Shown: positions 4,225 to 45,475 of the stretch, in pieces
Position numbering within the stretch: the stretch's first letter is position 1
Layout: the number at the start of each line of letters is the position of its first letter
Source of the DNA: an uncultured Candidatus Saccharibacteria bacterium
GTDB lineage: Bacteria > Patescibacteriota > Minisyncoccia > Phycocordibacterales > UBA918
Assembly (NCBI GenBank): GCA_964570795.1
Contig: CAZMYZ010000007.1
Span: forward strand, 1 to 45,475
DNA: 45,475 nucleotides
Direction: 5' to 3'
Program-made: the position numbers and the translations under genes
The notes under the pieces: generated by a model
Seen by the model: the letters and a program-made list of their open reading frames with translations, nothing else
Told to the model about the DNA's origin: nothing
The model's database searches: none

Positions 4225-4725
4225 TTATGCAATCTCGAGCACCTTACTTTTTGCTGGAGTGGGTGCGGGTACAGGTGTCCCATGTACTTGGCATAAGAGT
4301 GCGTAGAGGTATGCAGAAATAACAGGGGAGAGCACAAGTCCGACATTTTGGATATTTTCGCCGTCGAGATCAAATCCCTCTTCGAGGAAAAACATTGGAC
4401 TCACGCTGATATGGAGCAATGAGCGTAGGTGATGGCGTTTGAAGACATGCACGGCAATACCTTCTTCCCAAAACTCCCGTGGCACCTTTATCTCGATGCG
4501 ATAATCGAACTGCGGACCGTTTTGAAGAATACCTTTCCACCGCTCGTGCTCATCGCCGTGAGACAGATAGGTGCAGAAACCCTTTCCGCGCATGCCTTTG
4601 CGTATCCAGTCGCGTGCGTCTTCGACATCGAGAAAGTCAAAAATCTGACTCCCTACATATGCAATGAATACGCAGTTGCCTGTGGTGCGTGTGGGAAGTG
4701 CGTCGAGTACCATAGCGTACGGCAT
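4225..4725 (-). CDS. Hypothetical protein (166 aa)
   Basis: ORF track entry with no recognisable motif. Confidence 0.5.
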   Translation of the reverse strand: MPYAMVLDALPTRTTGNCVFIAYVGSQIFDFLDVEDARDWIRKGMRGKGFCTYLSHGDEHERWKGILQNGPQFDYRIEIKVPREFWEEGIAVHVFKRHHLRSLLHISVSPMFFLEEGFDLDGENIQNVGLVLSPVISAYLYALLCQVHGTPVPAPTPAKSKVLEIA

Positions 4726-4803
4726 AAGACCTCCTCAGTTGTGATGATGCTTCAAAATACTTCTGCGACAAGTATTACCACAGAAAAATATGTGTGTCAA
4801 AAT

Positions 4804-5604
4804 CTACGACACGAAAAACTCTATATAGCGCTTCTTCCAGGATGATTTAAATTGTGACACGGGTATAGAACCATTGCCCGAAGGTTCTGCAGGGTCGTTG
4901 TAGTAGAGAGTGTCGCCTTTGATACCAGTTACAATTACCAAATGCGGAATGGGGTTAGTAGGAGTGAAGGTGTAATGCACCGACGCCATTACGGGTCCTA
5001 CGGAAAGTGCCTTTTCAAATGCAGTAAATGCTACATCCATACTTGAGCCACCAAAGTCGTGTGTGGTGCCATTGAGGCCGTACTTGTGCGAGACTGCTAT
5101 GAGTCCTGCGTACGTCCAGCCAACGCTCGAGTATGCGTCTGCGGCAATACCTTCTTGGAGAAGTGTATCGACTGAGGTGAGGGAATCAGGATTATGAAAC
5201 TCAATAAGCATTGCAAGGCTTGCGATACCGCAGCCTATTTTTTTCCATTCAGGCGCGGTGATGTCGGTGAGTTGCGAGTAGAAGGGGACAAAAAAGACAC
5301 CACTTTGTGACACCAAAGGCTTTGCTTTCGGTGTCGCTTCTTTTACTTCCTCAACCACCTCTGGAGTAGGCTCGGGCTCAGGCAAAGTGTCTTCGATAAT
5401 AATTTCTTTAGGTATTATCTCCTCAGATGTGCCTACGTCTGTAGTGGTCTTAGGTAGGGGAGTGGAGACTTCAGCAATGGGCGCACTGATAGTGGCTACT
5501 GGCATAGGAGCGCTATAGGTGATGGGTGTGCCGGGTATGAGACCGAGCGCGATAAACATCGCACTTGCGCACACCACACCAACAATGAACTTTGTATTCA
5601 TCAA
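4804..5604 (-). CDS. Secreted or anchored C39-like cysteine peptidase (Peptidase_C39_2 / YvpB-BtrH-like)
   Basis: N-terminal signal/anchor (FIVGVVCASAMFIALGLIPG), a Pro/Glu/Thr linker, then a candidate Cys motif WKKIGCGIASLAMLIEF and a candidate His motif IPHLVIVTG....YYNDP. Confidence 0.65.
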   Translation of the reverse strand: MMNTKFIVGVVCASAMFIALGLIPGTPITYSAPMPVATISAPIAEVSTPLPKTTTDVGTSEEIIPKEIIIEDTLPEPEPTPEVVEEVKEATPKAKPLVSQSGVFFVPFYSQLTDITAPEWKKIGCGIASLAMLIEFHNPDSLTSVDTLLQEGIAADAYSSVGWTYAGLIAVSHKYGLNGTTHDFGGSSMDVAFTAFEKALSVGPVMASVHYTFTPTNPIPHLVIVTGIKGDTLYYNDPAEPSGNGSIPVSQFKSSWKKRYIEFFVS

Positions 5605-7609: not shown

Positions 7610-10468
7610 CTAAAACAAACTACTGAGGTACTCACGTTTTGACCATTCAAGCATGCGCTTTATAGGGAGGATAAGCGAGTCAATGAAACTACCACGCGGT
7701 GTTTCGGGGGTGGTGGTTTGTGTTCTGTATATCCCCGGTGTGTAGGTTACGGGCGATGTGTCTTCTTCAGAATCACTTGCGGGCTCTTGCGTGTCAGATG
7801 CGTAGGCTATAGAGGGTGCTGCAACAAACGTTGCTGTGGTCTGTGTGCGGAATGCAAAGTTTTTAAACCAATTAATTTCATGGAACTGTGCGACGCTCAG
7901 GGGGAACATTGCTTCGTTGTTGCATTGTATTTCATTTATTTTTTTCTGCGTGGTGAAGTACACATGTCCTGAATCACGGGTGAGTCCCCATGGGCTCAGG
8001 ACGTCGCTCGCGTAGCGTGATTGGAACGCGCGCACGGCTATCTCAGTTGCAATATCAAACTCGCCCGATACCGTGAGTGCGGTATCCATATGACCATTGA
8101 GAAATGTTTGAAGGCGACGTACATCTGCAGCATCGTTTACCGCACCATATTGCATGTATGTGGTGAGGTAGGGTGTACAGCGTGATGTTGAGAGTCCGAG
8201 TACTTGAGGTACGATGTCGCCAATGAACACTGTATCGGTTGCATCAGGCGAGTCATATGACTTGCCGGTACGTAGGGAATTATGCCTACTCAAGCCCACG
8301 ACATCGGCAGAGTTGGTGTAGGTACCAAAAGTTGCATCGTCAGCAAATTCCATAGTGTATGTTACGGAGATGGTTTCTCCGGCATGAATGGTACCTAAGT
8401 CCCAATACTGTTCACTTGTTGTTGCACCGGCTTCATTCTTGAGCACATCGCGCAGGAGTGATTTATAGAGTGGACCACCATTGTTGGTAAGGGTAATGGT
8501 GTAGTCGACTGAGCCACCTGGCGCAACTACTTCGACATTTGAGGACTTTGTGAGAGAAATGTTTGCAGGCTTGCTTCCACCACCACCACCATTTTTTCCT
8601 GAAGTAAATGAGAGGAGTTCCGTGTTGTCGCTTGTGTCGGCATCGGTTTCGTGTGCACGCACCGTGGCGCTACTCACAATCTCACGCTTTCCGTTATCGA
8701 GGTCTTCATGCACCTGTGTGGTAAATTCAACTATCTTTGTTTCGTGGGGCGCGATTGCGTCGAGCGTAAAGACACCATGTGCGCCATCATCGCGATACTG
8801 CATTTTTTCTGTATTTGATGTGTACACAAGTTCACTGCCATTGAATTGGTGGTCGAGGGTGACATCGGTTGCGGTGGCATCACCGTTATTGGTGACAGTG
8901 TAACGATAGGTTACTTCTGAGCCGGGCATTATGGTTGCTTTTGGTGAAGATACCGCACCACCAATCCAGAGGTCGGGGCGTCCGAATGCGAGGTCACCAC
9001 TCCAGTTTCCAAAGATGTCAAAAATGAGGAGTGCCCAGTTTTGACCAAGGATATTGGTATTGGTGACGTTTGTCACATTTGCTGCGGCGTACGCATCACC
9101 TGTTTCTACAACACCTGCTCCTTGTACTTTGTTGGCACCGGTGAGTGCAAAGACTGATACATTATTTTGGATATTGGCGATATTGGTACTTTCGACGGTG
9201 GTGTTTTGCGTACCACTTCCACTTGCGCCATTGGTGCTATAGAGGGTGATGCCGTTGGCAGTCTCTGCCCAGCCAATACCTTCAGGAAGTCCAAAGACTT
9301 CACCATCCCAATCCCCGTGAATACGAAGCACCAGGAGGAAATCACTGCCGCCAAAGAGATTGGTATTTACTGTATTTTGAATTGAACTATCACTGTACGC
9401 ATCACCGGTTGTTATTACTCCGCCGGTGCTGTTGTTACTGCCGGTGTCGGCAGTTGCCGTGATGTCGTTTTCGATAGTTGCAGTATTGGTGTTGGAAATA
9501 GTGCTGCCGAGCGAACTGCCGTTTGCACTAAAGAGAGTATTGAGTGCGTCAGCACCAGGGAGGACGATGTCGCCACCGTAGTCGCCAAAATTATTGAAGG
9601 AAATGAGAAGGTAGTTCGAGTCAGTGATGTTGGTGTTTGCGAGATTGAAGATATTTGCTGCGGCGTACGCATCACCGGTATAGATAGTGCTTCCGTCACC
9701 ACCGGTGTTGCCACCCGTGTCTGCGCGCACGACGATGTCATTTGAAATCGTTGCGGTGTTGTTTGTAGTAACGGTATATCCTTCAGTACCACAGGCGAGA
9801 GGTGTGCAGGGAGGAGTCGAGACTGCATTCGTATCATCAAAGACCACAAATGCGTCACGGAGATCGAGTGAACCCATACCGAGCACCTCATTAAAGAATT
9901 CGATAGCGCCATCGGAGTTGAAGATATTCGTATTGACGATATTCACGATATTTGCGTATGCAATTGCGTCACCAGTCACTATAAGAGATTCATCGCCTTC
10001 TGCCGTGTTGCCACCAGTTTCTGCGGTTACGGTAGCGGTATTCTGCAAGGTACCTATATTTTCGGTGGTGACAGTGTCACCGAGTATTTCATCCTCAGCA
10101 TCTTCTTCGGTGGTGGGTTCAGTTGAAAGTATGCTGTCGTCACCGAATGCAACGGCGTCACTTGTCTCAGTATCAGAAGTACCTGGTGATGGGATTTCTC
10201 CTTCAAAACCACTCGCCTCAAGGCCTTCATCTTCGGATGATGTGGGTGTATCAGGAGAAGTATCATTCATATTCACGATATTTTCCATGTCAGCACTCGA
10301 TTGTGCGTCACCGGTTACGATGAGTGCAGGTTCTTCAGGCGGCGTGTCTTCTGACGCGTACACAGGAAGAGCGCTTCCGAGCGGCGCAAGGATAAGCGCA
10401 GCGACGAGCATACTGGTGAATATCGAGAACGGTGTGCGTCTAGTGTTGTTGATTAAGTAGCGATACAT
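7610..10468 (-). CDS. Large secreted surface protein: 4-5 TGGN/TGDA/NTN repeat modules, two DUF11-like repeats and a PG_binding_1-like domain
   Basis: The ORF runs 7610..10522. I prefer the ATG at 10468 (MYRYLINNTRRTPFSIFTSMLVAALILAPLGSALPVYA looks like a signal peptide). Modules: AETGGNTAEGDESLIVTGDAIAYANIVNIVNTNI, ADTGGNTGGDGSTIYTGDAYAAANIFNLANTNI, ADTGSNNSTGGVITTGDAYSDSSIQNTVNTNL and ALTGANKVQGAGVVETGDAYAAANVTNVTNTNI. DUF11-like repeats: GSEVTYRYTVTNNGDATATDVTL and GGSVDYTITLTNNGG. Peptidoglycan-binding-like: DVRRLQTFLNGHMDTALTVSGEFDIATEIAVRAFQ. Confidence 0.8.
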   Translation of the reverse strand: MYRYLINNTRRTPFSIFTSMLVAALILAPLGSALPVYASEDTPPEEPALIVTGDAQSSADMENIVNMNDTSPDTPTSSEDEGLEASGFEGEIPSPGTSDTETSDAVAFGDDSILSTEPTTEEDAEDEILGDTVTTENIGTLQNTATVTAETGGNTAEGDESLIVTGDAIAYANIVNIVNTNIFNSDGAIEFFNEVLGMGSLDLRDAFVVFDDTNAVSTPPCTPLACGTEGYTVTTNNTATISNDIVVRADTGGNTGGDGSTIYTGDAYAAANIFNLANTNITDSNYLLISFNNFGDYGGDIVLPGADALNTLFSANGSSLGSTISNTNTATIENDITATADTGSNNSTGGVITTGDAYSDSSIQNTVNTNLFGGSDFLLVLRIHGDWDGEVFGLPEGIGWAETANGITLYSTNGASGSGTQNTTVESTNIANIQNNVSVFALTGANKVQGAGVVETGDAYAAANVTNVTNTNILGQNWALLIFDIFGNWSGDLAFGRPDLWIGGAVSSPKATIMPGSEVTYRYTVTNNGDATATDVTLDHQFNGSELVYTSNTEKMQYRDDGAHGVFTLDAIAPHETKIVEFTTQVHEDLDNGKREIVSSATVRAHETDADTSDNTELLSFTSGKNGGGGGSKPANISLTKSSNVEVVAPGGSVDYTITLTNNGGPLYKSLLRDVLKNEAGATTSEQYWDLGTIHAGETISVTYTMEFADDATFGTYTNSADVVGLSRHNSLRTGKSYDSPDATDTVFIGDIVPQVLGLSTSRCTPYLTTYMQYGAVNDAADVRRLQTFLNGHMDTALTVSGEFDIATEIAVRAFQSRYASDVLSPWGLTRDSGHVYFTTQKKINEIQCNNEAMFPLSVAQFHEINWFKNFAFRTQTTATFVAAPSIAYASDTQEPASDSEEDTSPVTYTPGIYRTQTTTPETPRGSFIDSLILPIKRMLEWSKREYLSSLF

Positions 10469-10820
10469 ATGAGTGTAAAAGTGCCCTAAGCTTCTCGAGG
10501 AGTGCAATAATTTCGGCGTCATGGTTATTCATCATTGTTGTATGTACGACGGTAGTTCCATCGGTAGTTTCAATGTGTGAATTGTATGAACCAGAATCAT
10601 CAAGCACGGTATCCTCCACCACAACTCCGTTTATGGTGGTTTTCACTGAAGCATGTGAAGTACCGTCGCCGCTACTCGATATCGACGTCGAGTTGGATAT
10701 GGTGATCGTCTCAGCAGTTGCAGTGTAGGGTGCTGCGCATACCAAAACGAGTGTGCATACCATGACGATGATACTCACCGTATAAATACCCAATTTATGT
10801 ATAAGTATGTTTGTTTTCAT
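10440..10820 (-). CDS. Small secreted Ser/Thr-rich protein with a C-terminal amphipathic helix
   Basis: The ORF runs 10440..10889. The likely start is MKTNILIHKLGIYTVSIIVMVCTLVLVCAAPYTATA (signal peptide). The stop overlaps the start region of the downstream surface-protein gene. Confidence 0.55.
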   Translation of the reverse strand: MKTNILIHKLGIYTVSIIVMVCTLVLVCAAPYTATAETITISNSTSISSSGDGTSHASVKTTINGVVVEDTVLDDSGSYNSHIETTDGTTVVHTTMMNNHDAEIIALLEKLRALLHSYVSLLNQQH

Positions 10821-10896
10821 TTCCCTCAATAAGATCTCGAGCGACCTCGGGGTCTTATTTGAAGGGGGGAGAGACTCCCCAACCTTCAAAGTTGTA

Positions 10897-11673
10897 CTAA
10901 CGAGTGATACGGGTGACGATTCGGTTTACCACGTTTACTACTTCAGAACCTGAAGTAGCATTCCCGCTGTAAATCTCACCGCCTACACCACCACTGCCGC
11001 CGGTACCACCAGCGCCACCCTGGTTATCATCAGATGACCAGAATGAGAAGAAACTATGCATGCGATGATGTCGACTACCCTCAGCATCACCACCATTACC
11101 ACCTTCTTCACCGTCACCGCCGTCGGCCTCATTGCCGCCGGTCTTGGCTTCTACTTCAACATCGTTTGCTACTGATGCACTGTTGTTGACGCGGACACGA
11201 ATGTCATTGTCATCGCCATCATCAGAACCATGTCGATTGAAGAATGAGAACATACTTGGCTCTTCGTCGTCACAGCCACATGAATCGGTAATTTTGGTCT
11301 TTACCACATTGACCTCATTAACAATTGACGAGTATGCTGCTGCATCGCCGGATACGATGTATCCGCCTAGTGCACCACTTCCACCATTACCCCCATTTCC
11401 TCCTGTGTTATCTCCTGAACCTTCTGCATCACCACCATTACCACCTTCTTCACCGTCACCGCCGTCGGCCTCATTGCCGCCGGTCTTTGCTTCGACATCG
11501 ACGGTATTGGTTACGGTTGCTTCATTTGAAACCGATACTTTTATGTCGTTGTCATCGCCACTATTGTTGTGCGACCAGAATGCCGATGCAGGCATAGTGA
11601 TAGCAAATGCACCGAGCGCGATGAGCGCAAGCGTGATAAATGCGAGTGTGTTCGTCTTTATTTGAGTGTTCAT
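10897..11673 (-). CDS. Secreted Gly/Asp-rich protein with two copies of the TGGN...GDA module
   Basis: Signal peptide MNTQIKTNTLAFITLALIALGAFAITMPASA. Internal duplication: DDNDI(K/R)V.V.N.A.V.N.V(D/E)VEAKTGGNEADGGDGEEGGNGGDAEGS appears twice, each followed by a Gly-rich tract and (Y/E)I(V/Y)SG(D/N)A....VVN.VN. Confidence 0.75.
   Translation of the reverse strand: MNTQIKTNTLAFITLALIALGAFAITMPASAFWSHNNSGDDNDIKVSVSNEATVTNTVDVEAKTGGNEADGGDGEEGGNGGDAEGSGDNTGGNGGNGGSGALGGYIVSGDAAAYSSIVNEVNVVKTKITDSCGCDDEEPSMFSFFNRHGSDDGDDNDIRVRVNNSASVANDVEVEAKTGGNEADGGDGEEGGNGGDAEGSRHHRMHSFFSFWSSDDNQGGAGGTGGSGGVGGEIYSGNATSGSEVVNVVNRIVTRITR
11084..11145. repeat. Intragenic direct repeat, copy 1 (62 nt, identical to 11426..11487)
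   Basis: GCATCACCACCATTACCACCTTCTTCACCGTCACCGCCGTCGGCCTCATTGCCGCCGGTCTT occurs at both positions. After one mismatch, 5 further nt (GCTTC) also match. Confidence 0.9.
11426..11487. repeat. Intragenic direct repeat, copy 2 (62 nt)
   Basis: Identical to 11084..11145. The offset is 342 nt (114 codons), so the duplication is in frame. Confidence 0.9.
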
Positions 11674-12098
11674 ATAATTAAAAATTAATTGATACTTCTA
11701 CTAATAAAGATGCTTTTTAGTGGAGCAATAAACACATGAGCTGAGGACTATTGTCCGTTAAGCCCACATGAGGACGCACGAAAGACCGCATGCATCGGCA
11801 TGTAGGTTTGTACGCGGATATGCCTATGTCACACGAGTGACATCAAAAAACCACTTCTAGACACAACGGAAGAAGCGGCGAGTAACTGTTGACGTCAACG
11901 TTTGTAAGGGAAGACACAACATAGGAAGACCTCCTGTGTTTGGTTTCCCCATCCAAACAAATAATAAGAGTGCATGTATTATGTTCCTTCTGCTACACAT
12001 GTCAATAAAAAATGCAATAGTTTTTATACACCGATACACAGAAAAAAACATGTCAAAATTTTTATCAATTGCATGGCTTAAAAATAGATTTTTAAAAA

Positions 12099-12178
12099 CA
12101 CCCTCTGTTAGGTCGGCTATATCTGGGGAAACATCATTCTTAAAGGATGATGGTGATAAACCGACCTAACAGAAGGTG
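12099..12178. repeat. 80-nt long imperfect hairpin in a gene-free AT-rich spacer
   Basis: Outer 18-bp stem CACCCTCTGTTAGGTCGG / CCGACCTAACAGAAGGTG with one mismatch. Inner 8-bp stem CATCATTC / GGATGATG (one G-U pair) with loop TTAAA, and an asymmetric internal loop. Confidence 0.7.
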
Positions 12179-12264
12179 CTTATATAACAAACGTAGGTCA
12201 ATGAAGACCTACATATATGAAAAACGGTATACCTACATTACTAAAAATGCAAGTGCGGTGTACT

Positions 12265-12599: not shown

Positions 12600-12965
12600 A
12601 TGTCGTTTCCTCACATCAATGTAAAAGCAACTAACTACACTGTCACGCCTAAGTTAGAAACATTGCTTGATCAGAAGTTTGCACCCTTAGGCAAATTACT
12701 CGATGATAGAAACGAAATACACTGTGAAGTGGAACTCGAGAAAGTTGCTGAACACCAATCAGGGAAAATCTACCGCGCTGAAGTCAATCTCACCGTAAAT
12801 GGAAAATTGTACCGTACCGAAGCTACCGAAGAAGAAATGGAGCAGGCTATTGATACTGCGCGCAACGAACTGAAAAATGAATTGCAGCGCGCTGCTGGCC
12901 GTCGCCATAGCCTTGTGCGCCGCGGCGGACAAATGCTCAAGGAGATGCTGCGCTTTGGGAAGTAG
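12600..12965 (+). CDS. hpf: Ribosome hibernation promoting factor / RaiA-YfiA family (short form)
   Basis: The 121-aa sequence INVKATNYTVTPKLETLLDQKFAPLGKLL....CEVELEKV......YRAEVNLTVNGKLYRTEATEEEMEQAIDTARNELKNELQR has the typical S30AE/HPF layout. Confidence 0.8.
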   Translation: MSFPHINVKATNYTVTPKLETLLDQKFAPLGKLLDDRNEIHCEVELEKVAEHQSGKIYRAEVNLTVNGKLYRTEATEEEMEQAIDTARNELKNELQRAAGRRHSLVRRGGQMLKEMLRFGK

Positions 12966-17324: not shown

Positions 17325-18827
17325 TTAAAACTCATCAAGGTATTGCACCTCAGCACCAAGGGAGGTGAGGCGTTCAACGAGGTTTTCGTAACCGCGATTG
17401 ATACTGTATATATTGCGTAAAACCGAGTGACCCTTGGCGCCAAGCATTGCAATGAGAAGGATGGTCGCAGGGCGCAGCGCGGGTGGGCAGATGAGTTCAT
17501 TGGGACGAAGGGTGCGCGGTCCCGTGATGTAGATACGATGGGGGTCGGCGAGCACGGTATCGGCACCGAGTTTGTCGAGTTCAGTAAAGTAGAGTGCGCG
17601 CTTTTCGTACACCCAGTCGTGAATAAGCGTCTGTCCCACTGCCTGTGTGGCAATCACCGCAAAGAAGGGGAGGTTGTCGATGTTGAGTCCGGGGTATACC
17701 GAGGGGTGAATCTTTTCATGAAGGGCAACGAGTTTCGACGGTTTTGTGGTGATGTCGACCAGTTTGGTGACACCATTTGTTGATAGGTACACTTTCGATT
17801 TTGTGTATTTGAATCCCATCTTCTCAAGTTTTAAAAGTTCAATTTCAAGAAACTCAATAGGGCATCGCTCAATTTTAATACTCGAGTTGGTCACAATCGC
17901 GGTCGCAAGGAAGAACATGGTGTCGGTAGGGTCTTCTGAAAGGGTGTACTCAATATCCTGTTTGAGTTCACTGATACCGTGGACGGTGAGTGTGGTGGTG
18001 CCGACACCCTCGATACGGACACCACATGACTGAAAGTAGGTACACATCTCCTGTACTTGGTAGTTTGCGGACGCGTATTTGATAACCGTCGTTGAAGGAG
18101 TGAGTGCTGCTGCCATGAGTGCATTTTCGGTCACGGTATCCCCTGATTCGTAGAGAATAATCTCAGTAGGTTTTTTCGGGGTTACGGATACTTTGAAATC
18201 AGTATCGGTGGTCTCGATATCGACACCAAAGTGTTCGAGCGCGTAGAAGTGTGGACGTACTGTGCGGCTGCCGAGTTTGCATCCTCCGGACTGGGGGAGT
18301 GAGAAGGAGTGGAGGGTGTGAATGAGAGGGCCAATAAACATCACGATACTGCGTGTCTTACGTGCCGCTTCGACGTCTATTTTCTTAAGCGCAAATACTT
18401 TTGGTGGTGTGAGAGTGACGTCGCTTCCGTTCCATTCCACACGCATACCGATACTCTGGAGTACTTCAATGATGCGATGTACTTCCTCAATGCGTGGTAC
18501 CCGACGCAGTGTGGTCTTTCCCTTGTTCATGAGGGACGCACAGAGAAGCCCCACGGCACCATTTTTGGAAGTAGAGGTCACCACCGTCCCATGGAGTTTT
18601 TTTCCACCCTCAATAGAGAGATTCATAGAGCCAGGGGAGAGGGTGACGAGGTTCTTCTTCAGCGCGCGTCCAAGTTTTTTGAGCATGTCGGCACTCACAT
18701 TTTGTTTGCCGCTTTCAATACGTGCAATGGCACTTTGGGTAGTTTTCAAAAGTTTTGCAAGTTCGCCCTGGGTCATCCCCTGTGTCTCGCGGAGGTCGGC
18801 TATCTGCTGTCCTATGTGTGTATGCAT
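17325..18827 (-). CDS. murA: Fusion protein: N-terminal XRE-family HTH plus UDP-N-acetylglucosamine 1-carboxyvinyltransferase (MurA)
   Basis: Residues 1-65, IGQQIADLRETQGMTQGELAKLLKTTQSAIARIESGKQNVSADMLKKLGRAL, form a classic Cro/C1-type HTH. The rest is collinear with MurA, including the catalytic-loop Cys (LPQSGGCKLGSRTVRPH) and the C-terminal INRGYENLVERLTSLGAEV. Confidence 0.8.
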   Translation of the reverse strand: MHTHIGQQIADLRETQGMTQGELAKLLKTTQSAIARIESGKQNVSADMLKKLGRALKKNLVTLSPGSMNLSIEGGKKLHGTVVTSTSKNGAVGLLCASLMNKGKTTLRRVPRIEEVHRIIEVLQSIGMRVEWNGSDVTLTPPKVFALKKIDVEAARKTRSIVMFIGPLIHTLHSFSLPQSGGCKLGSRTVRPHFYALEHFGVDIETTDTDFKVSVTPKKPTEIILYESGDTVTENALMAAALTPSTTVIKYASANYQVQEMCTYFQSCGVRIEGVGTTTLTVHGISELKQDIEYTLSEDPTDTMFFLATAIVTNSSIKIERCPIEFLEIELLKLEKMGFKYTKSKVYLSTNGVTKLVDITTKPSKLVALHEKIHPSVYPGLNIDNLPFFAVIATQAVGQTLIHDWVYEKRALYFTELDKLGADTVLADPHRIYITGPRTLRPNELICPPALRPATILLIAMLGAKGHSVLRNIYSINRGYENLVERLTSLGAEVQYLDEF

Positions 18828-20101: not shown

Positions 20102-22828
20102 ATGGAAATACCACAGCAGAAATTTAAAACCCCTGAGGAGGAGATTGCTTTTTTACGTGAGGAGATTGCACGTCGTGAACAAGACGTTCTTGCGCGTAAT
20201 AGAGAAATGGATATTGCCGACCGCGATAGCGTGGGGAAAGAGGTGATGCGTGAGTATGGAGAGTATGACCCGGGAATGGTGCTTGAAAAAAAACATCAAC
20301 TCTCTCCGCTTGCAGTAGCAGAGTCGCACGGGGCGGTAGAACTCGCACCACACAAAGTGGAGGAGATAGTCCATATTGCATATGAAAAAGGTATTCGAAA
20401 CGCCATGTCGGTTCTTGAGCGTATGGATGACCCATTTCTTGCTGACGAAGTCCATCGTGAACTTGCGCGTCTTATTCGCAATGAAAAGCAAGTTGCCGAC
20501 CTCAAGGAAGGTATGCCACTCTGGAAGGTGCTCAACATGTCACTCTTTGAGGTGGCGTTGCCACATCAGCCCGATGAGGCAAAACAAGACAATATAAAAG
20601 CAATTTTTGCGGCGATGGAGCAGTTTTATTCGGGTATGCAGACTATCTCTGCCCGCAAGAGTAATCTCTACTATACCCTCGAAATTGCGGTCTCTGATAA
20701 GAGTGACGATATTATTTTCTATATTGCAGTACCGACTGAGTTTGAAAATCTTTTTGAAAAGCACGCCCTCTCACTCTTTCCGCATGCAGTCCTCCGTGCA
20801 CAGCAAAATGATTACAATATTTTTGTGGAAGGCGGTGCGAGCGCAGTGTCGGTTCTTGAATTGAAGAAGCACCCCATCTATCCACTAAAACTCCATGAGA
20901 CTTTCGAGAAAGACCCCCTCAATGTTATTTTGAATGCCTTTTCAAAAATTGAACGTGATGGTGGCGGTGCGGCAATTCAGATAGTGGTGGGCGACGGTGC
21001 TGATGCGTACCATGCCGAGTATAGCGGGATTGTGAAGCGTATGGAAAAGGGTGAGAAGGCAGAAGTCTCTATTCGTAAGAGTAGTTTTGGCGGCCAGTTT
21101 TTTGAACTGGTGAAAGATATGGCGGTAGACCAAAAAAAGAAGGATGACCCCAATAATCCCGAAAACAAAGTAGATACCGAAAAGATTGAGATTTTTGGTA
21201 AAAAAATATTGTCGCCGGTAGTAGACACCAATATCCGTCTCGCTGTTTCTGCAACCACACAGCCACGTGCACAACAGATACTTACCGAACTTGAATCTTG
21301 TTTCAATCAGTTCCAGGATATGAAAGGGAATCAATGTTCCTTTAAACGTTTTTTAGGCGGGAAGCAGCAGAAGGCATTACGTGATTTTTCTTTCCGTCAA
21401 TTTGATTCTTCGTATGCGGTGCCGCTCTCACTTACCGAACTTTCGACCATTGTTCACTTTCCTGCAGAGGGTATTGAGTCCACACCACAGTTCAAGCAGT
21501 CGCGCGCAAAAGGTGTTTCAGCACCACTCAATCTTCCTAACCACGGTACGCTTCTTGGTGTAAATGAGTATCGCAACATAGCCACAAAGGTATTTCTCAC
21601 ACCAGAGGATCGTCTCCGTCACTTTTATGTGATTGGACAGACGGGTACGGGTAAAACAACGCTCATTAAAAATATGGTGGTACAGGATATTCAAGAAGGA
21701 GCAGGCGTGTGTTTTATTGATCCGCACGGTACCGATATTATGCATATTATTGCAGCGATTCCGCCTGAGCGCATTGATGATGTTATTTACTTTGATCCTT
21801 CGAATCTTGAAACATCACTTGGGCTTAATATGCTTGAGTATGATGAACAAAAGCCAGAACAGAAGACTTTTATTGTGAACGAGTTGCTCTCTATGTTCCA
21901 GAAACTCTACGGAGCAAACCCAGAATCTATGGGGCCAATGTTTGAGCAGTACTTCCGCAACTCGACACTCCTCGTGATGGAGGACCCTGCCTCGGGAAGC
22001 ACTCTTCTTGATATATCGCGCGTCATGGCAGATCCGGTATTCCGTGCACGCAAACTCGCAAAGACCACCAATCCTGTGGTGAAGCAATTCTGGGAAAAAA
22101 TTGCCACAAAGGCAGGTGGTGATCAATCTCTAGAAAACTTTGTGCCATATATCACCTCAAAGATTGACCCCCTTACCGCGAACGACTACATGCGCCCTAT
22201 TATTGGCCAACAGCACTCGTCATTCAACTTCCGTGACATTATGGACTCGAAGAAAATCCTCCTTGTGAATCTTTCGAAAGGACGTCTTGGAGAACTCAAT
22301 GCCAATCTCATCGGTATGGTGATTGTCGGCAAGATACTTATGGCAGCACTTTCACGTGTGGACGACCCGACGCAAAGTTTCCCGCCGTTCTATCTCTATA
22401 TTGATGAATTCCAAAACGTCACCACTGATTCTATCTCGGCAATTCTTTCTGAAGCTCGCAAGTATAAACTCGGCCTCACCATAGCACATCAATTTATTGC
22501 ACAAATAGATGAGAAAATTCGCGACGCGGTCTTTGGTAACGTGGGTTCGATGGCGGTCTTCCGTGTGGGTACCGAGGATGCAGTCTTTCTTGAGAAGCAA
22601 TTTGCACCAACCTTCCTTACGAATGATCTTATGAATATAGAAAACAGAAATGCATATATCCGCATTCTTTCAAACGGTACGCCAACACAGCCATTTAATA
22701 TTCACACGATGAAACCAAGTGATCCTAATCCTGAGTACGCCCGACAACTTATTGAATACTCAACACTTAAGTATGGGACACCACGTCTCGAGGTGGATGC
22801 TGCAATACGTGCACGCTATCTTTCTTAG
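20102..22828 (+). CDS. TraD/VirD4 (type IV coupling protein)-like P-loop ATPase with a ~480-aa soluble N-terminal region and no TM segments
   Basis: Walker A is VIGQTGTGKTT (GQTGTGKT at 21635-21658) and Walker B is FYLYIDEFQN (about 22391-22408). The C-terminal LTIAHQFIAQI....VFGNVGSMAVFRVG resembles the TraD/TraG C-terminal module. The N-terminus is hydrophilic and partly coiled coil. Confidence 0.7.
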   Translation: MEIPQQKFKTPEEEIAFLREEIARREQDVLARNREMDIADRDSVGKEVMREYGEYDPGMVLEKKHQLSPLAVAESHGAVELAPHKVEEIVHIAYEKGIRNAMSVLERMDDPFLADEVHRELARLIRNEKQVADLKEGMPLWKVLNMSLFEVALPHQPDEAKQDNIKAIFAAMEQFYSGMQTISARKSNLYYTLEIAVSDKSDDIIFYIAVPTEFENLFEKHALSLFPHAVLRAQQNDYNIFVEGGASAVSVLELKKHPIYPLKLHETFEKDPLNVILNAFSKIERDGGGAAIQIVVGDGADAYHAEYSGIVKRMEKGEKAEVSIRKSSFGGQFFELVKDMAVDQKKKDDPNNPENKVDTEKIEIFGKKILSPVVDTNIRLAVSATTQPRAQQILTELESCFNQFQDMKGNQCSFKRFLGGKQQKALRDFSFRQFDSSYAVPLSLTELSTIVHFPAEGIESTPQFKQSRAKGVSAPLNLPNHGTLLGVNEYRNIATKVFLTPEDRLRHFYVIGQTGTGKTTLIKNMVVQDIQEGAGVCFIDPHGTDIMHIIAAIPPERIDDVIYFDPSNLETSLGLNMLEYDEQKPEQKTFIVNELLSMFQKLYGANPESMGPMFEQYFRNSTLLVMEDPASGSTLLDISRVMADPVFRARKLAKTTNPVVKQFWEKIATKAGGDQSLENFVPYITSKIDPLTANDYMRPIIGQQHSSFNFRDIMDSKKILLVNLSKGRLGELNANLIGMVIVGKILMAALSRVDDPTQSFPPFYLYIDEFQNVTTDSISAILSEARKYKLGLTIAHQFIAQIDEKIRDAVFGNVGSMAVFRVGTEDAVFLEKQFAPTFLTNDLMNIENRNAYIRILSNGTPTQPFNIHTMKPSDPNPEYARQLIEYSTLKYGTPRLEVDAAIRARYLS

Positions 22829-26088: not shown

Positions 26089-27185
26089 TGTCAATTCTTA
26101 TATTTCTCATTGTTCTTTTTGTACTAGTACTAGTACATGAACTCGGTCATTTTGCGGTCGCAAAATGGACGGGAATGCGCGTAGATGAATTTGGTATTGG
26201 ATTCCCACCAAAACTTTTTGGTGTCCGTCGCGGAGAGACCGAATACACATTCAATCTTTTTCCGATAGGAGGGTTTGTAAAAATATACGGTGAAGATGCA
26301 CTCCTTGAGGGTGAAGCAACACATCCCGATGCAACCTCACGTTCGTTTATGTCGAAGGGGAAGTGGGCACAAGCTGCGGTACTCGTGGCGGGTATCACGA
26401 TGAATATCCTTTTTGCATGGCTCCTTATCACTATTGCATTTGGTATGGGGGTAAAGAGTTCTGTTTCTGAGGAGGATGCCACAGATACTGCGGCACTCGC
26501 TATTACACAAGTACTTCCCGAAGGTCCTGCTGCACAAGCATCACTTACTCCTGGAGCGGTGATTCGTGAAGTGCAGGCAGGGGAAGATACACTCACGACA
26601 CTTACGCCGACAGCATTTAGTGCATTTATTGCAGAACACAAGGATGTACCGGTGACTATTGCCTATATGCTTGAAGGAGAGTTGCGTGCTGTGCAGGTTA
26701 CTCCCGCAGTGGGTATTATTGAAGGCTCCGAGCGTCCGGCGATTGGTGTTGCACTCACCCTTGTCGATACGGTATCGCGCTCATTTGGGGAATCAATTGT
26801 CGATTCTTCAGTGTTTGTGGTAACCGCAATTCGCGATATTACGGTAGGTATTTGGACACTTCTTGCTGATACGGTGCGTATGCAAGCAGACTTTTCACAA
26901 GTGGCGGGCCCTGTAGGTATTGTAGGGCTTGTCGATGAGGCGTCTTCATACGGTATCACCTCACTTCTTATGTTTACTGCATTCATCTCACTCAACCTTG
27001 CAGTCATCAATATATTGCCGTTCCCGGCCCTCGATGGAGGACGTCTTCTCTTTGTGATTATCGAAGCGGTGAAGGGGACACCAATTAAAGCGCAGTATGT
27101 CGCAGTCTTGAATACAGTAGGATTTTTCCTCCTCATTCTTCTGATGGTGTTGGTCACTTGGAATGATATAGCAAAGTTGATTTAA
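26088..27185 (+). CDS. rseP: Site-2 protease RseP (M50 family zinc metalloprotease with a PDZ region)
   Basis: HELGHF zinc motif at the N-terminus and LNLAVINILPFPALDGG near the C-terminus. The start overlaps the frr stop (TAATG). Confidence 0.88.
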   Translation: MSILIFLIVLFVLVLVHELGHFAVAKWTGMRVDEFGIGFPPKLFGVRRGETEYTFNLFPIGGFVKIYGEDALLEGEATHPDATSRSFMSKGKWAQAAVLVAGITMNILFAWLLITIAFGMGVKSSVSEEDATDTAALAITQVLPEGPAAQASLTPGAVIREVQAGEDTLTTLTPTAFSAFIAEHKDVPVTIAYMLEGELRAVQVTPAVGIIEGSERPAIGVALTLVDTVSRSFGESIVDSSVFVVTAIRDITVGIWTLLADTVRMQADFSQVAGPVGIVGLVDEASSYGITSLLMFTAFISLNLAVINILPFPALDGGRLLFVIIEAVKGTPIKAQYVAVLNTVGFFLLILLMVLVTWNDIAKLI

Positions 27186-27202
27186 GAGACTATCCACTAA
27201 CC
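27183..27202. repeat. Solo copy of the terminal motif of the 41228..41543 element
   Basis: AGAGACTATCCACTAACC matches AGAGCCTATCCACTAACC (41229-41246) at 17 of 18 positions. Here too it starts at the stop codon (the rseP TAA). Confidence 0.75.
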
Positions 27203-36758: not shown

Positions 36759-36884
36759 TAAGAGTCCATCAAATAACTTTCAGATACGAGGCGTCGAGGA
36801 GTGAGAACATGAGTTGTACACATGTACGGTGAATGTTCGAACGACGAAAACAACGAAGTAGATGAAGTTAGTGGATGGGCTATA
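36759..36884. repeat. Short (about 126 nt) inverted copy of the element found after murF
   Basis: Three blocks match the reverse complement of 41228..41543. Block 1: 36780-36817 vs 41487-41524, 35 of 38. Block 2: 36824-36845 vs 41342-41363, 22 of 22. Block 3: 36856-36881 vs 41231-41256, 23 of 26. The ends are AGAGTCCATCA and TGGATGGGCTAT. Confidence 0.8.
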
Positions 36885-39937: not shown

Positions 39938-41230
39938 ATGAAAGAAATTTTTAAAAAAATCGTTGTCGCGATCCTTACCTTTGAAGCAAAGATGCTTTTG
40001 CGTCGCACCCATCCACAGATTATTGCGGTGACGGGAAGTGTGGGGAAGACTTCCATCAAGGATGTAATCTATGAAGTCTTTAAGGGAAAGATTCATGTAC
40101 GCAAAAGTGAAAAGAGTTTCAATTCTGAAATTGGCGTGCCACTCTCAGTACTCGGTCTCCCGAATGCATGGAATAATCCATTTATGTGGCTCAAGAATAT
40201 TATTGATGGTGCACTCATTGCAATACATCCCGGAGAGTATCCAAAGTTACTTATCCTCGAGATGGGTGTCGACAGACCAGGCGATATGGATAAACTCACT
40301 TCATGGATCCGCCCCGATGTTGTGGTACTTACGCGCTTGCCTGATGTACCGGTGCATGTGGAGTTTTTTGTGTCACCCGAGGCAGTTATTCAGGAAAAAA
40401 AGAAACTCGTCGATGCGCTAAAGCCGGATGGAGTGCTTGTCTTTAATCAGGATGATGAAAAGGTGGTGGAGATTGTGCAGGGCGTGTTTCAGCGCTCCAT
40501 AGGATATAGTCGCTACTCACTTTCACCATTTACTGCTTCTGGTGACCGTGTGATATATGAAAACGGTCAGGCAGTTGGTTTTGAATTTTTGCTCACTCAC
40601 TTGGATACTGCGGTACTCATGCGGGTGAACGGCTCACTTGGGGTGCAACATGCGTACAATTATGCAGCAGCTGCTGCCGTAGCATCAGTATTTAGTATTA
40701 GTGTTGAGGACGCTGCTGCTGCACTGAGTACCCATACTCCACCCCCAGGACGTATGCGTCTTATTCCGGGAATCAAGGATACGCTTATTATTGATGATAC
40801 ATACAATTCTTCACCAACCGCGAGTGAACGTTCCCTCGCAACTCTCGGTGAACTGAAAGGGGTGAAGCGTCGTATTGCGGTTTTAGGCGACATGATGGAG
40901 TTAGGGCAGTTTTCTATTAAAGAACATGAACGTATTGGACGTCTTGTACCACACAATGCACACATTCTTGTCACTATCGGTGTGCGCTCTCGTGGTTTTT
41001 CAAAGGGAGCTGTGGAAGCAGGTATGGACCCTAAAAATATTTTTGAATTTGATGATGCACTCCGTGCAGGAAAGGAATTGCAAAACTTTATCAAAGCAGG
41101 GGATGCAATTCTCGTGAAAGGCTCACAGTCTATTCGCGCTGAGCGCTTTGTGGAGGAACTCATGGCAGAGCCAGAAAAAGCAGAAGAGATGCTTGTACGG
41201 CAGGACACAATGTGGAAGAAAATTGTTTAG
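39938..41230 (+). CDS. murF: MurF-like Mur ligase (UDP-MurNAc-tripeptide--D-Ala-D-Ala ligase family) with a very short N-terminus
   Basis: IAVTGSVGKTSIKD P-loop about 30 aa from the start, the IIDDTYNSSP motif, and a C-terminal domain with VLGDMMELG. An in-frame TAA at 39908-39910 rules out a longer N-terminus. Confidence 0.75.
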   Translation: MKEIFKKIVVAILTFEAKMLLRRTHPQIIAVTGSVGKTSIKDVIYEVFKGKIHVRKSEKSFNSEIGVPLSVLGLPNAWNNPFMWLKNIIDGALIAIHPGEYPKLLILEMGVDRPGDMDKLTSWIRPDVVVLTRLPDVPVHVEFFVSPEAVIQEKKKLVDALKPDGVLVFNQDDEKVVEIVQGVFQRSIGYSRYSLSPFTASGDRVIYENGQAVGFEFLLTHLDTAVLMRVNGSLGVQHAYNYAAAAAVASVFSISVEDAAAALSTHTPPPGRMRLIPGIKDTLIIDDTYNSSPTASERSLATLGELKGVKRRIAVLGDMMELGQFSIKEHERIGRLVPHNAHILVTIGVRSRGFSKGAVEAGMDPKNIFEFDDALRAGKELQNFIKAGDAILVKGSQSIRAERFVEELMAEPEKAEEMLVRQDTMWKKIV

Positions 41231-41543
41231 AGCCTATCCACTAACCCCATCTACTTTGTGGCCGGAACGTACAGAGCGTAGCGACAATACGTTCCGAGTC
41301 TGTCGTATTTTCTTCCCCACGGAAGAAAATACGACGAATGAGTCGTTCGAACATTCACCGTACGTTGAGTTCCTGACAGGAACTGTCCACTCATTGGGTC
41401 TTCTTGCGACAGTCTCCCAGACTGTCTCACCTTTCATTCACAAAAGTCCTCAATGAGTCTTGCGAATGTGCTTTATGCACATTCTCACGACTTATGTCCT
41501 CACTCCTCGACGCCTCGTATCTGAGGTCATTGGATAGGCTCTA
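41228..41543. repeat. 316-nt hairpin-packed element with 13-nt perfect terminal inverted repeats (a MITE-like element or a structured RNA)
   Basis: TAGAGCCTATCCA at 41228-41240 is the exact reverse complement of TGGATAGGCTCTA at 41531-41543. The interior contains at least five perfect stem-loops, including a 15-bp one at 41302-41335. There is no credible ORF. Confidence 0.8.
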
Positions 41544-41585
41544 ATGGTCGTTTTGCAATTGCTGACATCGTAAGTCGGCAATTCT

Positions 41586-41619
41586 AAAAATGGTTGACGT
41601 CCGACGTCGACCATTTTTT
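41586..41619. terminator. Bidirectional terminator between the dcw block (+) and the CAP-domain gene (-)
   Basis: AAAAATGGTTGACGT CCG ACGTCGACCATTTTT stem with one mismatch. Confidence 0.7.
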
Positions 41620-45427: not shown

Positions 45428-45475
45428 TCATGCCACTAAAAATAGCGCCCAATGGCGCTATTTTTAGTGGCATGA
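45428..45475. repeat. Perfect 22-bp inverted repeat ending exactly at the window edge
   Basis: TCATGCCACTAAAAATAGCGCC CAAT GGCGCTATTTTTAGTGGCATGA. Confidence 0.85.

Follow-up and report, generated by a model that had tools for sequence, protein, structure and literature searches.

Beginning at the stop codon of murF, at the 3' end of the dcw operon, lies a 316-nt segment made up almost entirely of hairpins, and the question raised by this locus is what kind of element it represents. The initial annotation proposed three candidates: a TA-targeting MITE, a REP/BIME-like composite and a new multi-helix RNA. We identified the segment as an expanded copy of a previously undescribed repeat family with a unit of ~115-125 nt. 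The window (the whole stretch of 45,475 nt that was analysed) contains two full copies and one stub within 45 kb. We lean towards reading the segment as an enlarged member of a MITE-like (ERIC/Correia-style) family of non-coding mobile repeats, situated in a 3' UTR. The following features of the window are relevant:

39938-41230: murF ORF, with Mur_ligase_M and Mur_ligase_C domains and a terminal TAG at 41228-41230
41228..41543, plus strand: long (316-nt) copy of the hairpin repeat, in forward orientation (the murF direction), with partial matches to covariance model R1
41228..41230, plus strand: murF stop codon TAG, consisting of TA and the first base of the element, within the closing stem at the tip of its left arm
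41228..41249, plus strand: left arm of closing stem P1 (a perfect 13 bp, a 1-nt gap, then 8 bp)
41262..41341, plus strand: Module A, 80 nt, two perfect hairpins (9 bp and 15 bp), in no other copy found
41342..41363, plus strand: backbone block, 22 nt, 100% identity to the short copy, forming a P3 strand and the base of P4
41364..41486, plus strand: Module B, 123 nt, seated on the tip of P4 as a domain of three to four hairpins
41487..41524, plus strand: backbone block, 38 nt, 92% identity to the short copy, holding CTCACTCCTCGACGCCTCGTATCTGA
41522..41543, plus strand: right arm of closing stem P1, with TA at 41542-41543, then A (TAA)
41586..41618, both strands: terminator-like palindrome between an A run and a T run, separating the element from a convergent CAP-domain gene
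36764..36884, minus strand (forward orientation): short copy, 121 nt, in the mraZ-rsmH spacer, with TA at both tips and 104 bits with covariance model R1
27183..27202, plus strand: stub, consisting of the stop codon of an M50 peptidase (rseP-like) gene and 18 nt of left arm, then TA

The ends of the long copy are as initially described: TAGAGCCTATCCA at 41228-41240 and its exact reverse complement at 41531-41543 form a perfect 13-bp inverted repeat with TA tips, and the end of the murF ORF coincides with the tip of the left arm, which therefore supplies the TAG stop. A pattern search with TAGAGCCTATCCA, allowing up to 2 mismatches, returned 4 matches against 0.48 expected, both perfect ends among them. 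Lengthened to 28 nt, the inverted repeat matches at 82%. Between the arms we found stems of 9 bp (41263-71/41288-96), 15 bp (41302-16/41321-35) and 8 bp (41368-75/41377-84), together with stems at 41405-15/41419-29, 41389-96/41451-58 and 41464-71/41477-84, the last lengthening to 19 nt at 84%. All of the interior stems previously listed are thus present, and the one at 41368-41384 has 8 bp and not 6. The predicted RNA folds are -123.8 kcal/mol for the plus strand (z -8.9) and -141.7 kcal/mol for the minus strand (z -9.3), and in neither case did any of 100 shuffles equal the value. The complementary (minus) strand is the better folder and is termed here the "sense" strand. No ORF is conserved across the copies, in agreement with the earlier statement that the element has none.

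The segments common to the long and short copies are exactly the stretches between the extra hairpins, namely the 22-nt and 38-nt blocks, and CTCACTCCTCGACGCCTCGTATCTGA in the latter is the most conserved motif of the family. The idea that hairpin modules had been added to a simpler backbone was borne out by the remaining copies, since short copies are without both modules and the copy on metagenome contig L007 has Module B without Module A. This L007 copy, a full 238 nt, lies at a different locus, orthologous to the window stub at 27183..27202. Two of its segments, of 50 nt and 33 nt, match Module B at 92-97%, and a different hairpin replaces the innermost one. Because a near-homologous long copy is present in this independent contig, an assembly artefact, which the initial annotation had named as a refuting outcome, is ruled out. 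Module B would have been added at the tip of the innermost helix and Module A in the 3'-side internal loop, both of them positions that the rod probably tolerates. We rejected the notion that the modules are themselves nested MITEs: they are without terminal repeats, and the sole further copy is that of Module B in L007.

Dispersed copies, which the initial annotation had suggested counting, exist at further loci. Beyond the window, 14 copies in 11 further loci were found by covariance model R1 or by eye (L001, L003, L004, L005 with three, L006, L007, L008, L009, L012, L015, L023 with two, and L025; L010 is a near-duplicate of L009 and was given no separate count). In total, 17 copies plus stubs were analysed. 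They come from Saccharibacteria-like MAGs, two "Deltaproteobacteria" MAGs and one IMG/VR contig, and homologous copies are present in independent assemblies of several sources. A scan with the 22-mer core found one contig only (L007) in metagenomes and six loci in the genome collection, where the covariance model showed L003 and L005 to be real copies; L002 has only a 20-mer match to the core.

Every copy has a closing stem of 15-24 bp, the sequence of which varies between lineages while pairing is kept. Inside it is the core, a conserved rod of three short helices parted by conserved internal loops. In a covariation analysis, also among the proposed checks, 92.5% of core cells are paired and 14 of 20 pairs have changed on both sides, whereas none of 500 shuffles matched this and slid controls reached at most 38%. 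At one core position, 12 of 16 copies keep a G-U pair and four have G-C. Conservation is highest in the interior, where some unpaired nucleotides are identical between phyla, and lowest at the termini. In relatives with 70-78% coding DNA identity, same-locus copies retain pairing and core despite saturated divergence, which looks like purifying selection in place.

The window long copy, short copy and stub have a closing-stem sequence in common with one another and with the related L007 copy, and the L005 copies are likewise alike, indicating bursts of spread inside a lineage. Identity between the Saccharibacteria copy L004 and the Deltaproteobacteria copies is 74-75%, suggesting horizontal transfer, and the IMG/VR copy adjoins a phage gene. 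The genes preceding the copies are unrelated (rpoD, rseP, PPIase, PBP2, mraZ, cheA, AdoHcy hydrolase and the phage gene), and the flanking genes are housekeeping genes in conserved synteny. With the element found after so many different genes, the suggestion of an RNA gene confined to the end of the dcw operon is unsupported.

Orthologous sites were found in filled, empty and remnant states, which together with dispersed copies is the pattern of a MITE. At the 3' end of murF, the window has the long copy, and L009/L010 and L023/L024 have short ones. In L027, the same closing arms surround an unrelated interior, leaving arms without a core. In L019-22 there is a 9-nt stub, then TA, and L011 and L012-14 are empty, with the terminator directly after the stop codon. 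The mraZ-rsmH spacer is filled in the window, filled in the opposite orientation in L008 and L023, and empty in L009, L011 and L019.

TA is present at both tips in 8 of 13 CPR copies, where the TA...TA flank is itself palindromic, so a reading as target duplication is ambiguous. Outside the right arm, TA occurs in the same proportion (8/13) against a background of 5.6% (P ~1e-7). None of the five Deltaproteobacteria-type copies has the right-hand TA, and there is no target duplication there. The CPR copies and their rebuilt stop codons thus accord with the strict TA target of IS630/Tc1-mariner MITEs, and the Deltaproteobacteria subfamily does not. Placement relative to genes is tighter still. 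For 12 of the 17 copies, the distance between the start and the stop codon of a co-directional gene is 0-3 nt, with a joint P of ~1e-11 under uniform placement and ~1e-7 when only TA sites are allowed (both over 8 loci, some of them orthologous). In all 14 listed stop-abutting starts, stub included, the first base of the element is a purine. Most CPR copies have a stop codon on one side and an intrinsic terminator on the other; three or four of all the copies are away from a stop codon or reversed (the window short copy, L001, L015 and L003).

Database searches gave no known identity. An Rfam 15 scan of the whole window at gathering scores matched only a tRNA, and scans by E-value, with a limit of 10, of the long, short and Deltaproteobacteria copies returned nothing relevant, consistent with the original remark that no RNase P, tmRNA, SRP or 6S signature was visible. 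BLAST of the long copy against a phage collection gave no match. The search for an IS630-type transposase advised at the outset likewise found no transposase in the window (Pfam) or in the gene tables of the fetched loci, and no parent IS was found; no RAYT was seen, nor any integrase near the element. A literature search found no description of MITE-like repeats in Patescibacteria (CPR). Several identities were considered and discarded. A sense-strand peptide or transposase 5' end (GAGGAG then ATG) was rejected as the ATG is missing in several copies and its T is part of a covarying base pair. Coding by stop-codon read-through does not hold, as post-stop frames are not conserved. Resemblances to hammerhead, hairpin and twister-sister ribozymes and to group II domain V are without Rfam support, and the rod is not its own intrinsic terminator, there being no consistent T run after either arm.

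Among known systems, the closest parallels are short palindromic repeats of other bacteria. Size variants of ERIC come from internal insertions at fixed points. ERIC/IRU, a MITE of Enterobacteriaceae (~127 bp), is an imperfect palindrome that folds as one long hairpin with TA flanks, lies in gene 3' UTRs and operon spacers in either orientation, is co-transcribed, and has an interior unusually conserved between genera and no known transposase (PMC3184786). The new repeat is similar in its ~120-nt palindromic hairpin, TA tips, insertion-made size variants, 3' UTR and spacer sites and conserved interior, but differs in having lineage-variable termini with fixed interior loops, stop-flush placement, strand asymmetry and cross-phylum spread. 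The likeness is one of analogy, with no sequence similarity claimed, as the hosts belong to other phyla and the motifs differ. In Correia elements the terminal repeats are 26 bp long and well conserved, promoter and IHF sites are present, and the range is a single genus. These Neisseria elements (CREE/NEMIS) are 100-160 bp, with terminal inverted repeats, TA duplication and long and short forms; they are transcribed in mRNAs, where the hairpin is processed, and are found in prophage regions (PMC3184786). The new repeat resembles them in size, terminal inverted repeats, TA at the tips and long and short forms, whereas no 26-bp conserved repeats, promoter or IHF sites, or one-genus limit was seen in it.

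REP units are GC-rich, 20-40 nt long and tagged at the end by a conserved GTAG or CGTC, and the conserved part of REPINs is their ends. Like REP/BIME/REPIN sequences, the new repeats are extragenic palindromes after stop codons with long vertical persistence, and such palindromes are thought to be handled as single-stranded hairpins. However, we saw no 20-40-nt GC-rich unit, no GTAG or CGTC tag at the tips and no RAYT, and the candidate REP/BIME-like composite was set aside. An internal GTAG in AAAGTAGATG is not conserved, being GCAAAT or GCAGAT in other copies. Integron attC sites are also comparable, as strand-specific folded hairpins at or over the preceding stop codon, with structure conserved above sequence and a variable central length; but the new repeat lacks the R'' (RYYYAAC) and R' (GTTRRRY) ends, follows housekeeping genes and not cassettes, and has no integrase nearby.

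Of the three original candidates, the TA-targeting MITE is the best supported. According to this reading, the element would enter DNA at a TA, nearly always that of a TAA or TAG stop codon, and the stop would therefore be rebuilt from TA and the purine first base of the element. The inserted copy would then lie between stop codon and terminator and be transcribed within the 3' UTR. Movement would be catalysed in trans by an enzyme encoded elsewhere, the prime suspect being a TA-duplicating IS630/Tc1-type transposase, and a copy could be lost by a deletion ending exactly at the right tip, leaving a left-arm stub. The multiple copies, variable orthologous sites, TA flanks and second locus of Module B favour this reading, as do the closing stems alike within a genome, the identity of L004 to the Deltaproteobacteria copies, the phage-adjacent copy, the absence of a conserved ORF and the lack of an Rfam match. 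Terminal inverted repeats surround a short transposase-free core, as is general for MITEs. Against it count the absence of a transposase or parent IS, the Deltaproteobacteria copies without right-hand TA and the same-locus copies that look to be under purifying selection. Moreover, termini conserved least and an interior conserved most are the reverse of a textbook MITE and of terminal-repeat recognition by a transposase. Stop-flush placement is also far tighter than TA targeting alone would give, and a double-stranded DNA transposon offers no reason for a bias between strands in folding and G-U pairs. The conserved interior, strand-asymmetric wobble pairs and stop-codon placement thus go beyond what a plain MITE explains.

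RNA-like covariation and strand asymmetry are nonetheless present in the family. One strand folds better in 17 of 17 copies, by 0.7-24.5 kcal/mol, and closing stems have 39 G-U pairs on the better-folding strand and 12 on the other. The forward (mRNA) strand always has more C than G and is 54-64% pyrimidine. The asymmetry is independent of flanking-gene orientation, as the long and short copies of the window are on opposite strands. The strand co-transcribed with the upstream gene is the worse folder in all 17 copies. Deamination was rejected as the cause, since C-to-T change on an exposed coding strand predicts the opposite sign.

Could the host instead keep the repeat above all as a cis-acting RNA structure, mobility being only its route of arrival? 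We consider this possible but doubtful. A terminating ribosome would melt the rod at the stop codon and the rod would refold behind it, perhaps coupling upstream translation to 3'-exonuclease protection or to RNase III/RNase E processing; other outcomes in the 3' UTR might be Rho loading on the C-rich forward strand or altered efficiency of the downstream terminator. The stop-flush starts, the position before intrinsic terminators, the pyrimidine-rich forward strand and the covarying core that persists with its pairing at orthologous sites all agree with such a role, and ERIC and Correia copies at gene 3' ends are co-transcribed and change mRNA stability (PMC3184786). It is hard to reconcile, however, with the co-transcribed strand being the worse folder throughout, with the copies off stop codons or reversed, and with the close relatives L011 and L012, in which these genes have no copy. 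That the segment is a separate small RNA gene, transcribed from its own promoter on the minus strand and antisense to the murF stop codon, is very improbable. That strand has the best fold, and a weak sigma-70-like match (9/12) lies ~30 nt upstream (41610 to 41581), but this site falls within the terminator palindrome and is not upstream of other copies, tandem gene arrays (L005, L008, L012, L023) would leave that strand untranscribed, and the family is multi-copy and variably present without an Rfam match. Chance clustering of hairpins or an assembly artefact, for which nothing speaks except the oddity of the segment, is practically negligible given z of ~-9 against shuffles and the homologues in independent assemblies.

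Another rival reading concerns the route of movement. The purine-rich sense strand may be delivered to stop codons as a folded ssDNA or RNA hairpin, whose conserved internal loops would be read by a structure-specific enzyme (HUH/RAYT-like, integrase-like or other), the closing stem needing only to pair and having no set sequence. Loops conserved across phyla, closing stems that vary freely if paired, sense-strand wobbles in independently diverged stems, the core G-U pair that alternates only with G-C, an asymmetry that holds in either orientation and the missing target duplication in Deltaproteobacteria copies are all in keeping with it. We still judge it distinctly unlikely. No enzyme that could act in this way was seen, and selection for a forward strand rich in C and poor in G would account for the asymmetry equally well. 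The TA found at the two tips of CPR copies suits a cut-and-paste DDE transposase, the attC consensus ends are absent (as read by eye), and L027 has kept the arms with the core gone. The broader proposal of a new, structure-defined class of mobile element, which mobilising or host machinery would recognise on one strand by its internal loops and not its ends, and which would home to stop codons, is tentative and rather unlikely. If it is true, rebuilding the stop from its own first base would let such an element spread through compact genomes and across phyla with genes intact.

The MITE-like reading also bears on the biology of the hosts. Patescibacteria (CPR) genomes measure ~1 Mb, have very short spacers and are believed to contain few mobile elements. 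A repeat tucked between stop codon and terminator illustrates how such an element can survive there. In a census of bacterial MITEs, 97.4% were genus-specific (PMC11602168), so it is unusual for CPR bacteria and Deltaproteobacteria to have a core in common. The sharing suggests either that the repeat has passed between very dissimilar cells or that its core is read by a conserved partner, and the covarying rod with its fixed loops is a concrete target for finding such a partner. Finally, contigs L017 and L018 break exactly at the murF stop, and a repeat at the stop codon accounts for contig breaks of this kind.

We identified a family of rod-folding repeats of approximately 115-125 nt, represented by 17 copies plus stubs, and we lean towards regarding it as a mobile palindromic repeat, non-autonomous and similar in kind to ERIC and Correia elements; the 316-nt element in the murF 3' UTR would be an expanded variant of it. 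As the initial annotation had proposed, this long copy is bounded by 13-nt terminal inverted repeats (TAGAGCCTATCCA at 41228-41240 and its exact reverse complement at 41531-41543), and the tip of its left arm supplies the TAG stop codon of murF (ORF 39938-41230, encoding Mur ligase domains). The inverted repeats extend imperfectly up to 28 nt. Every interior stem listed there is present, although the one described as 6 bp is actually 8 bp. Folded as RNA, the + strand gives -123.8 kcal/mol (z -8.9) and the - strand -141.7 kcal/mol (z -9.3), and none of 100 shuffles folded as well. Rfam yielded no match to the long or short copies, whether the gathering score or an E-value of <=10 served as cut-off. 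The suggestion that hairpin modules had been added to a simpler backbone was also supported: the long copy consists of the short-copy backbone and two extra blocks.

Family members in the window and extra blocks of the long copy
41228-41543, murF direction: long copy, 316 nt, 3' of murF
41262-41341: block A of the long copy, two hairpins
41364-41486: block B of the long copy, three to four hairpins
36764-36884, strand opposite to the long copy: short copy, 121 nt, mraZ-rsmH spacer
27183-27202: stub, 20 nt, M50 peptidase gene, at its stop codon

Copies elsewhere were found on some of the other fetched loci (L001-L027). With a 20-mer taken from the backbone, three 'Candidatus Saccharibacteria' MAGs (L001, L004 and L006) and two 'Deltaproteobacteria bacterium' MAG contigs (L003 and L005) proved to carry copies; a metagenome scan yielded L007, and the IMG/VR contig L025 carries one copy. 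Six short copies were used to build a covariance model, R1, which detected more diverged copies on contigs with MurF relatives (82-87% identity). The survey took in roughly 45 kb of the source genome plus stretches of 1-21 kb from other genomes, with organism labels taken as given in public records; because loci were ascertained via a conserved 20-mer or murF synteny, both the apparent core conservation and the loci sampled are biased. L005, with three copies within 8 kb, is not a CPR (Patescibacteria) genome; it has approximately 58% G+C and encodes BamD, CheA, CheW, AdoHcy hydrolase and AlaRS. Identity between the Saccharibacteria copy in L004 and the Deltaproteobacteria copies is 74-75%, a closeness equal to that among members of one subfamily. 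Across 183,232 genomes, 97.4% of MITEs were genus-specific (PMC11602168).

Three further loci hold core-like sequence. L002 5401-5420, on a high-G+C 'bacterium' MAG contig, agrees with the family core at all 20 nt; the family model did not match it, and it is either chance or a fragment. The mraZ-rsmH spacer of L012 (6835-6932) contains AAAACAACGACGTACACAGGTACG, like the 3' part of the core in sense orientation, which may be a decayed copy. After murF in L008, a 290-nt hairpin-rich spacer (11288-11585, -135 kcal/mol) with a long near-perfect palindrome of >30 bp and a core-like fragment, GACGGCGCCTCGTATGTG, may be a decayed or different element.

The family unit is a rod, described here on the sense strand, the complement of the forward orientation (for the long copy, the murF direction).

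Anatomy of the rod on the sense strand, from the outside inward
closing stem P1, 15-24 pairs, frequently in two parts
CAG, then a 3-bp helix UAC/GUA, covarying to UGC/GCA
internal loop, GAGGC opposite AACAAA
second 3-bp helix GUC/GAC, covarying to GCG/CGC
larger purine-rich internal loop, GAGGAG... opposite ...ACGACGAA
P3, 5-bp helix, freely covarying
GAG/UGA motif with a conserved G-U pair
innermost hairpin P4, CGUA...UACG

In an alignment of 16 copies (A5), standard pairs occupy 92.5% of cells and 14 of the 20 pairs show both-sided changes; none of 500 shuffles attained the observed pairing and covariation values, and pairing fell to 24-38% once partners were slid. P1 differs widely in sequence among lineages with its pairing always kept, the murF-site left arms GAGCCTATCCA (window), GAACCCATCTC (L009) and GAGTGTGTCC (L023) each pairing with their own right arm. 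The minimum-energy fold of the long copy still contains the family helices: block A lies in the 3'-side internal loop, and block B replaces the P4 loop with the base of P4 retained (UCGU/ACGG). Block B also occurs at a different locus in L007 (92-97% identity over two aligned segments of 50 nt and 33 nt), which indicates that B-bearing elements propagated as such. The L007 copy has the innermost hairpin of block B swapped for another and is without block A, and thus block A is private to the long copy among the copies seen.

Orthologous sites were variously filled, empty or reduced to stubs.

Occupancy of the two orthologous sites
murF 3' end, window: long copy
murF 3' end, L009/L010 and L023/L024: short copies
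murF 3' end, L027 4407-4612: TA-flanked 206-nt rod at the stop codon, L009-type arms, unrelated interior
murF 3' end, L019-L022: TAGAGCCTATC alone, then TA
murF 3' end, L011 and L012-14: empty, terminator directly after the stop codon
mraZ-rsmH spacer, window: filled
mraZ-rsmH spacer, L008 and L023: filled, orientation opposite to the window's
mraZ-rsmH spacer, L009, L011 and L019: empty

The closest relative by DNA identity, L011 (78%), is among those empty at the murF 3' end. The L027 rod did not match the family model, and its L009-type arms around a wholly unrelated interior mean that arms can outlive or exchange cargo. Where the window has its stub, at the end of an rseP-like gene, L007 has a full copy. 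This stub and the murF-site stub of L019-L022 retain 9-18 nt of left-arm sequence, and both stop precisely at the point where the TA of the right tip is expected. The right arm is followed by TA in eight of 13 CPR copies, compared with a background TA frequency of 5.6% (P ~1e-7), and in none of the Deltaproteobacteria subfamily. P1 sequence is common to the long copy, short copy and stub of the window and L007, and likewise to L005 (three copies), L003 and L025, indicating bursts of spread within a lineage. Arms are also shared at one locus across genomes (L008/L023 at mraZ, L009/L027 at murF), indicating long vertical persistence. Among independent assemblies, the murF stop codon is the exact end point of contigs L017 and L018, and L019-L022 begin inside the final 100 nt of mraZ, which fits repeats interrupting assembly.

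When copy coordinates were compared with ORFs, the forward strand of 12 of the 17 copies was found to start 0-3 nt downstream of the stop codon that ends a co-directional gene, and P1 usually includes this codon; one copy in L005 (L005-1) starts 11 nt away. The upstream genes are murF, mraZ, PBP2, rseP, PPIase, rpoD, cheA, AdoHcy hydrolase and a phage gene. At eight loci, some of which are orthologous, the spacer limits are known; jointly, such placement has a probability of ~1e-11 if insertion is uniform and ~1e-7 if confined to TA sites. At all 14 listed stop-abutting starts (12 flush copies plus L005-1 and the stub of the window), the element begins with a purine directly after TA, so that the stop codon is always rebuilt. 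Exceptions to the stop-codon placement are the truncated copy in L003 and three copies in 5' leaders (the window short copy, L001 and L015), where the sense strand is co-directional. An intrinsic terminator usually lies within the next 10-40 nt of CPR copies, that of the long copy being the palindrome 41586-41618.

The two strands are not equivalent. The sense strand folds better in all 17 copies, by 0.7-24.5 kcal/mol, and independently diverged P1 stems hold 39 G-U pairs on the sense strand versus 12 on the forward one. In every copy C exceeds G on the forward strand (skew +0.06 to +0.31), whose pyrimidine content is 54-64%. Deamination of the coding strand while it is exposed is a known mutational bias; we rejected it as the source because it is predicted to act in the opposite direction, and the asymmetry therefore looks selected. 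Selection would act either on how the sense strand folds, whether as RNA or as single-stranded DNA, or on a forward RNA that is rich in C and folds weakly. In most cases, the strand transcribed together with the upstream gene is the one that folds less well.

ERIC and Correia elements, which measure approximately 100-160 bp, have terminal repeats, TA at both ends and long and short forms, and lie in 3' UTRs with effects on mRNA (PMC3184786), are the closest analogues in size, terminal repeats, the end TAs of most CPR copies, long/short forms and 3'-UTR location. REP/REPIN and integron attC sites have single features in common with the family, but the defining features of neither were found. 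No literature on such repeats in Saccharibacteria or Patescibacteria was found. Our confidence in a mobile repeat is only modest because several facts misfit a plain MITE: no transposase or parent IS seen in the window or in the gene tables of the fetched loci, the missing right-hand TA in the Deltaproteobacteria subfamily, variable termini with interior loops fixed across phyla, the strand asymmetry, a core and pairing kept at orthologous sites where coding DNA is only 70-78% identical, and stop-codon placement tighter than TA preference accounts for. These facts feed two readings that partly overlap with it. The element may be a cis-acting RNA structure kept by the host and coupled to translation termination, which is possible if rather unlikely, or may be acted on via its core while folded as a single strand, which we consider improbable. 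A stand-alone antisense small RNA is very doubtful, and an artefact is scarcely credible.

Other structures neighbor these sites. The murF-CAP spacer has a small hairpin, kept in several relatives independently of the repeat (window 41551-41589, L009 ~10625-10650, L019 ~4478-4500, L026 ~2018-2040, L027 ~4686-4708), with loop ATCGTAA (window, L019), ACCGTAA (L009), AACGTAA (L026) or ATCGTAT (L027) and a covarying stem (GCTGAC/GTCGGC, GTCGAC/GTCGAC, GAGCGAC/GTCGCTC). An AT-rich near-perfect palindrome of 40-44 nt, TTATTTATATTATATCTGCCATATGGCAGATATAATATAAATAA, conserved among relatives, lies just upstream of the convergent gene's terminator (L009 10670-10713, L010 2270-2313, L023 ~4783-4820, L026 ~2068-2108).

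Further features of the window
7610-11673: 970-aa DUF11/CARDB-repeat surface protein and adjoining ORF, with internal DNA repeats (families D1-D3) at ~300-576-nt spacing
12090-12187: 27-nt inverted repeat (85%), 44 nt between arms, in the intergenic spacer upstream of a ribosome hibernation factor gene (12600-12965)
17325-18827: EPSP-synthase-fold (MurA/AroA-type) enzyme with a fused N-terminal HTH_3 DNA-binding domain
20102-22828: 908-aa protein with VirD4/TraG-type coupling-protein domains, amid housekeeping genes (mreB, holB-like, frr)
45428-45475: perfect inverted repeat of 22 nt around a 4-nt loop, past a SpoU methylase gene and closing the window
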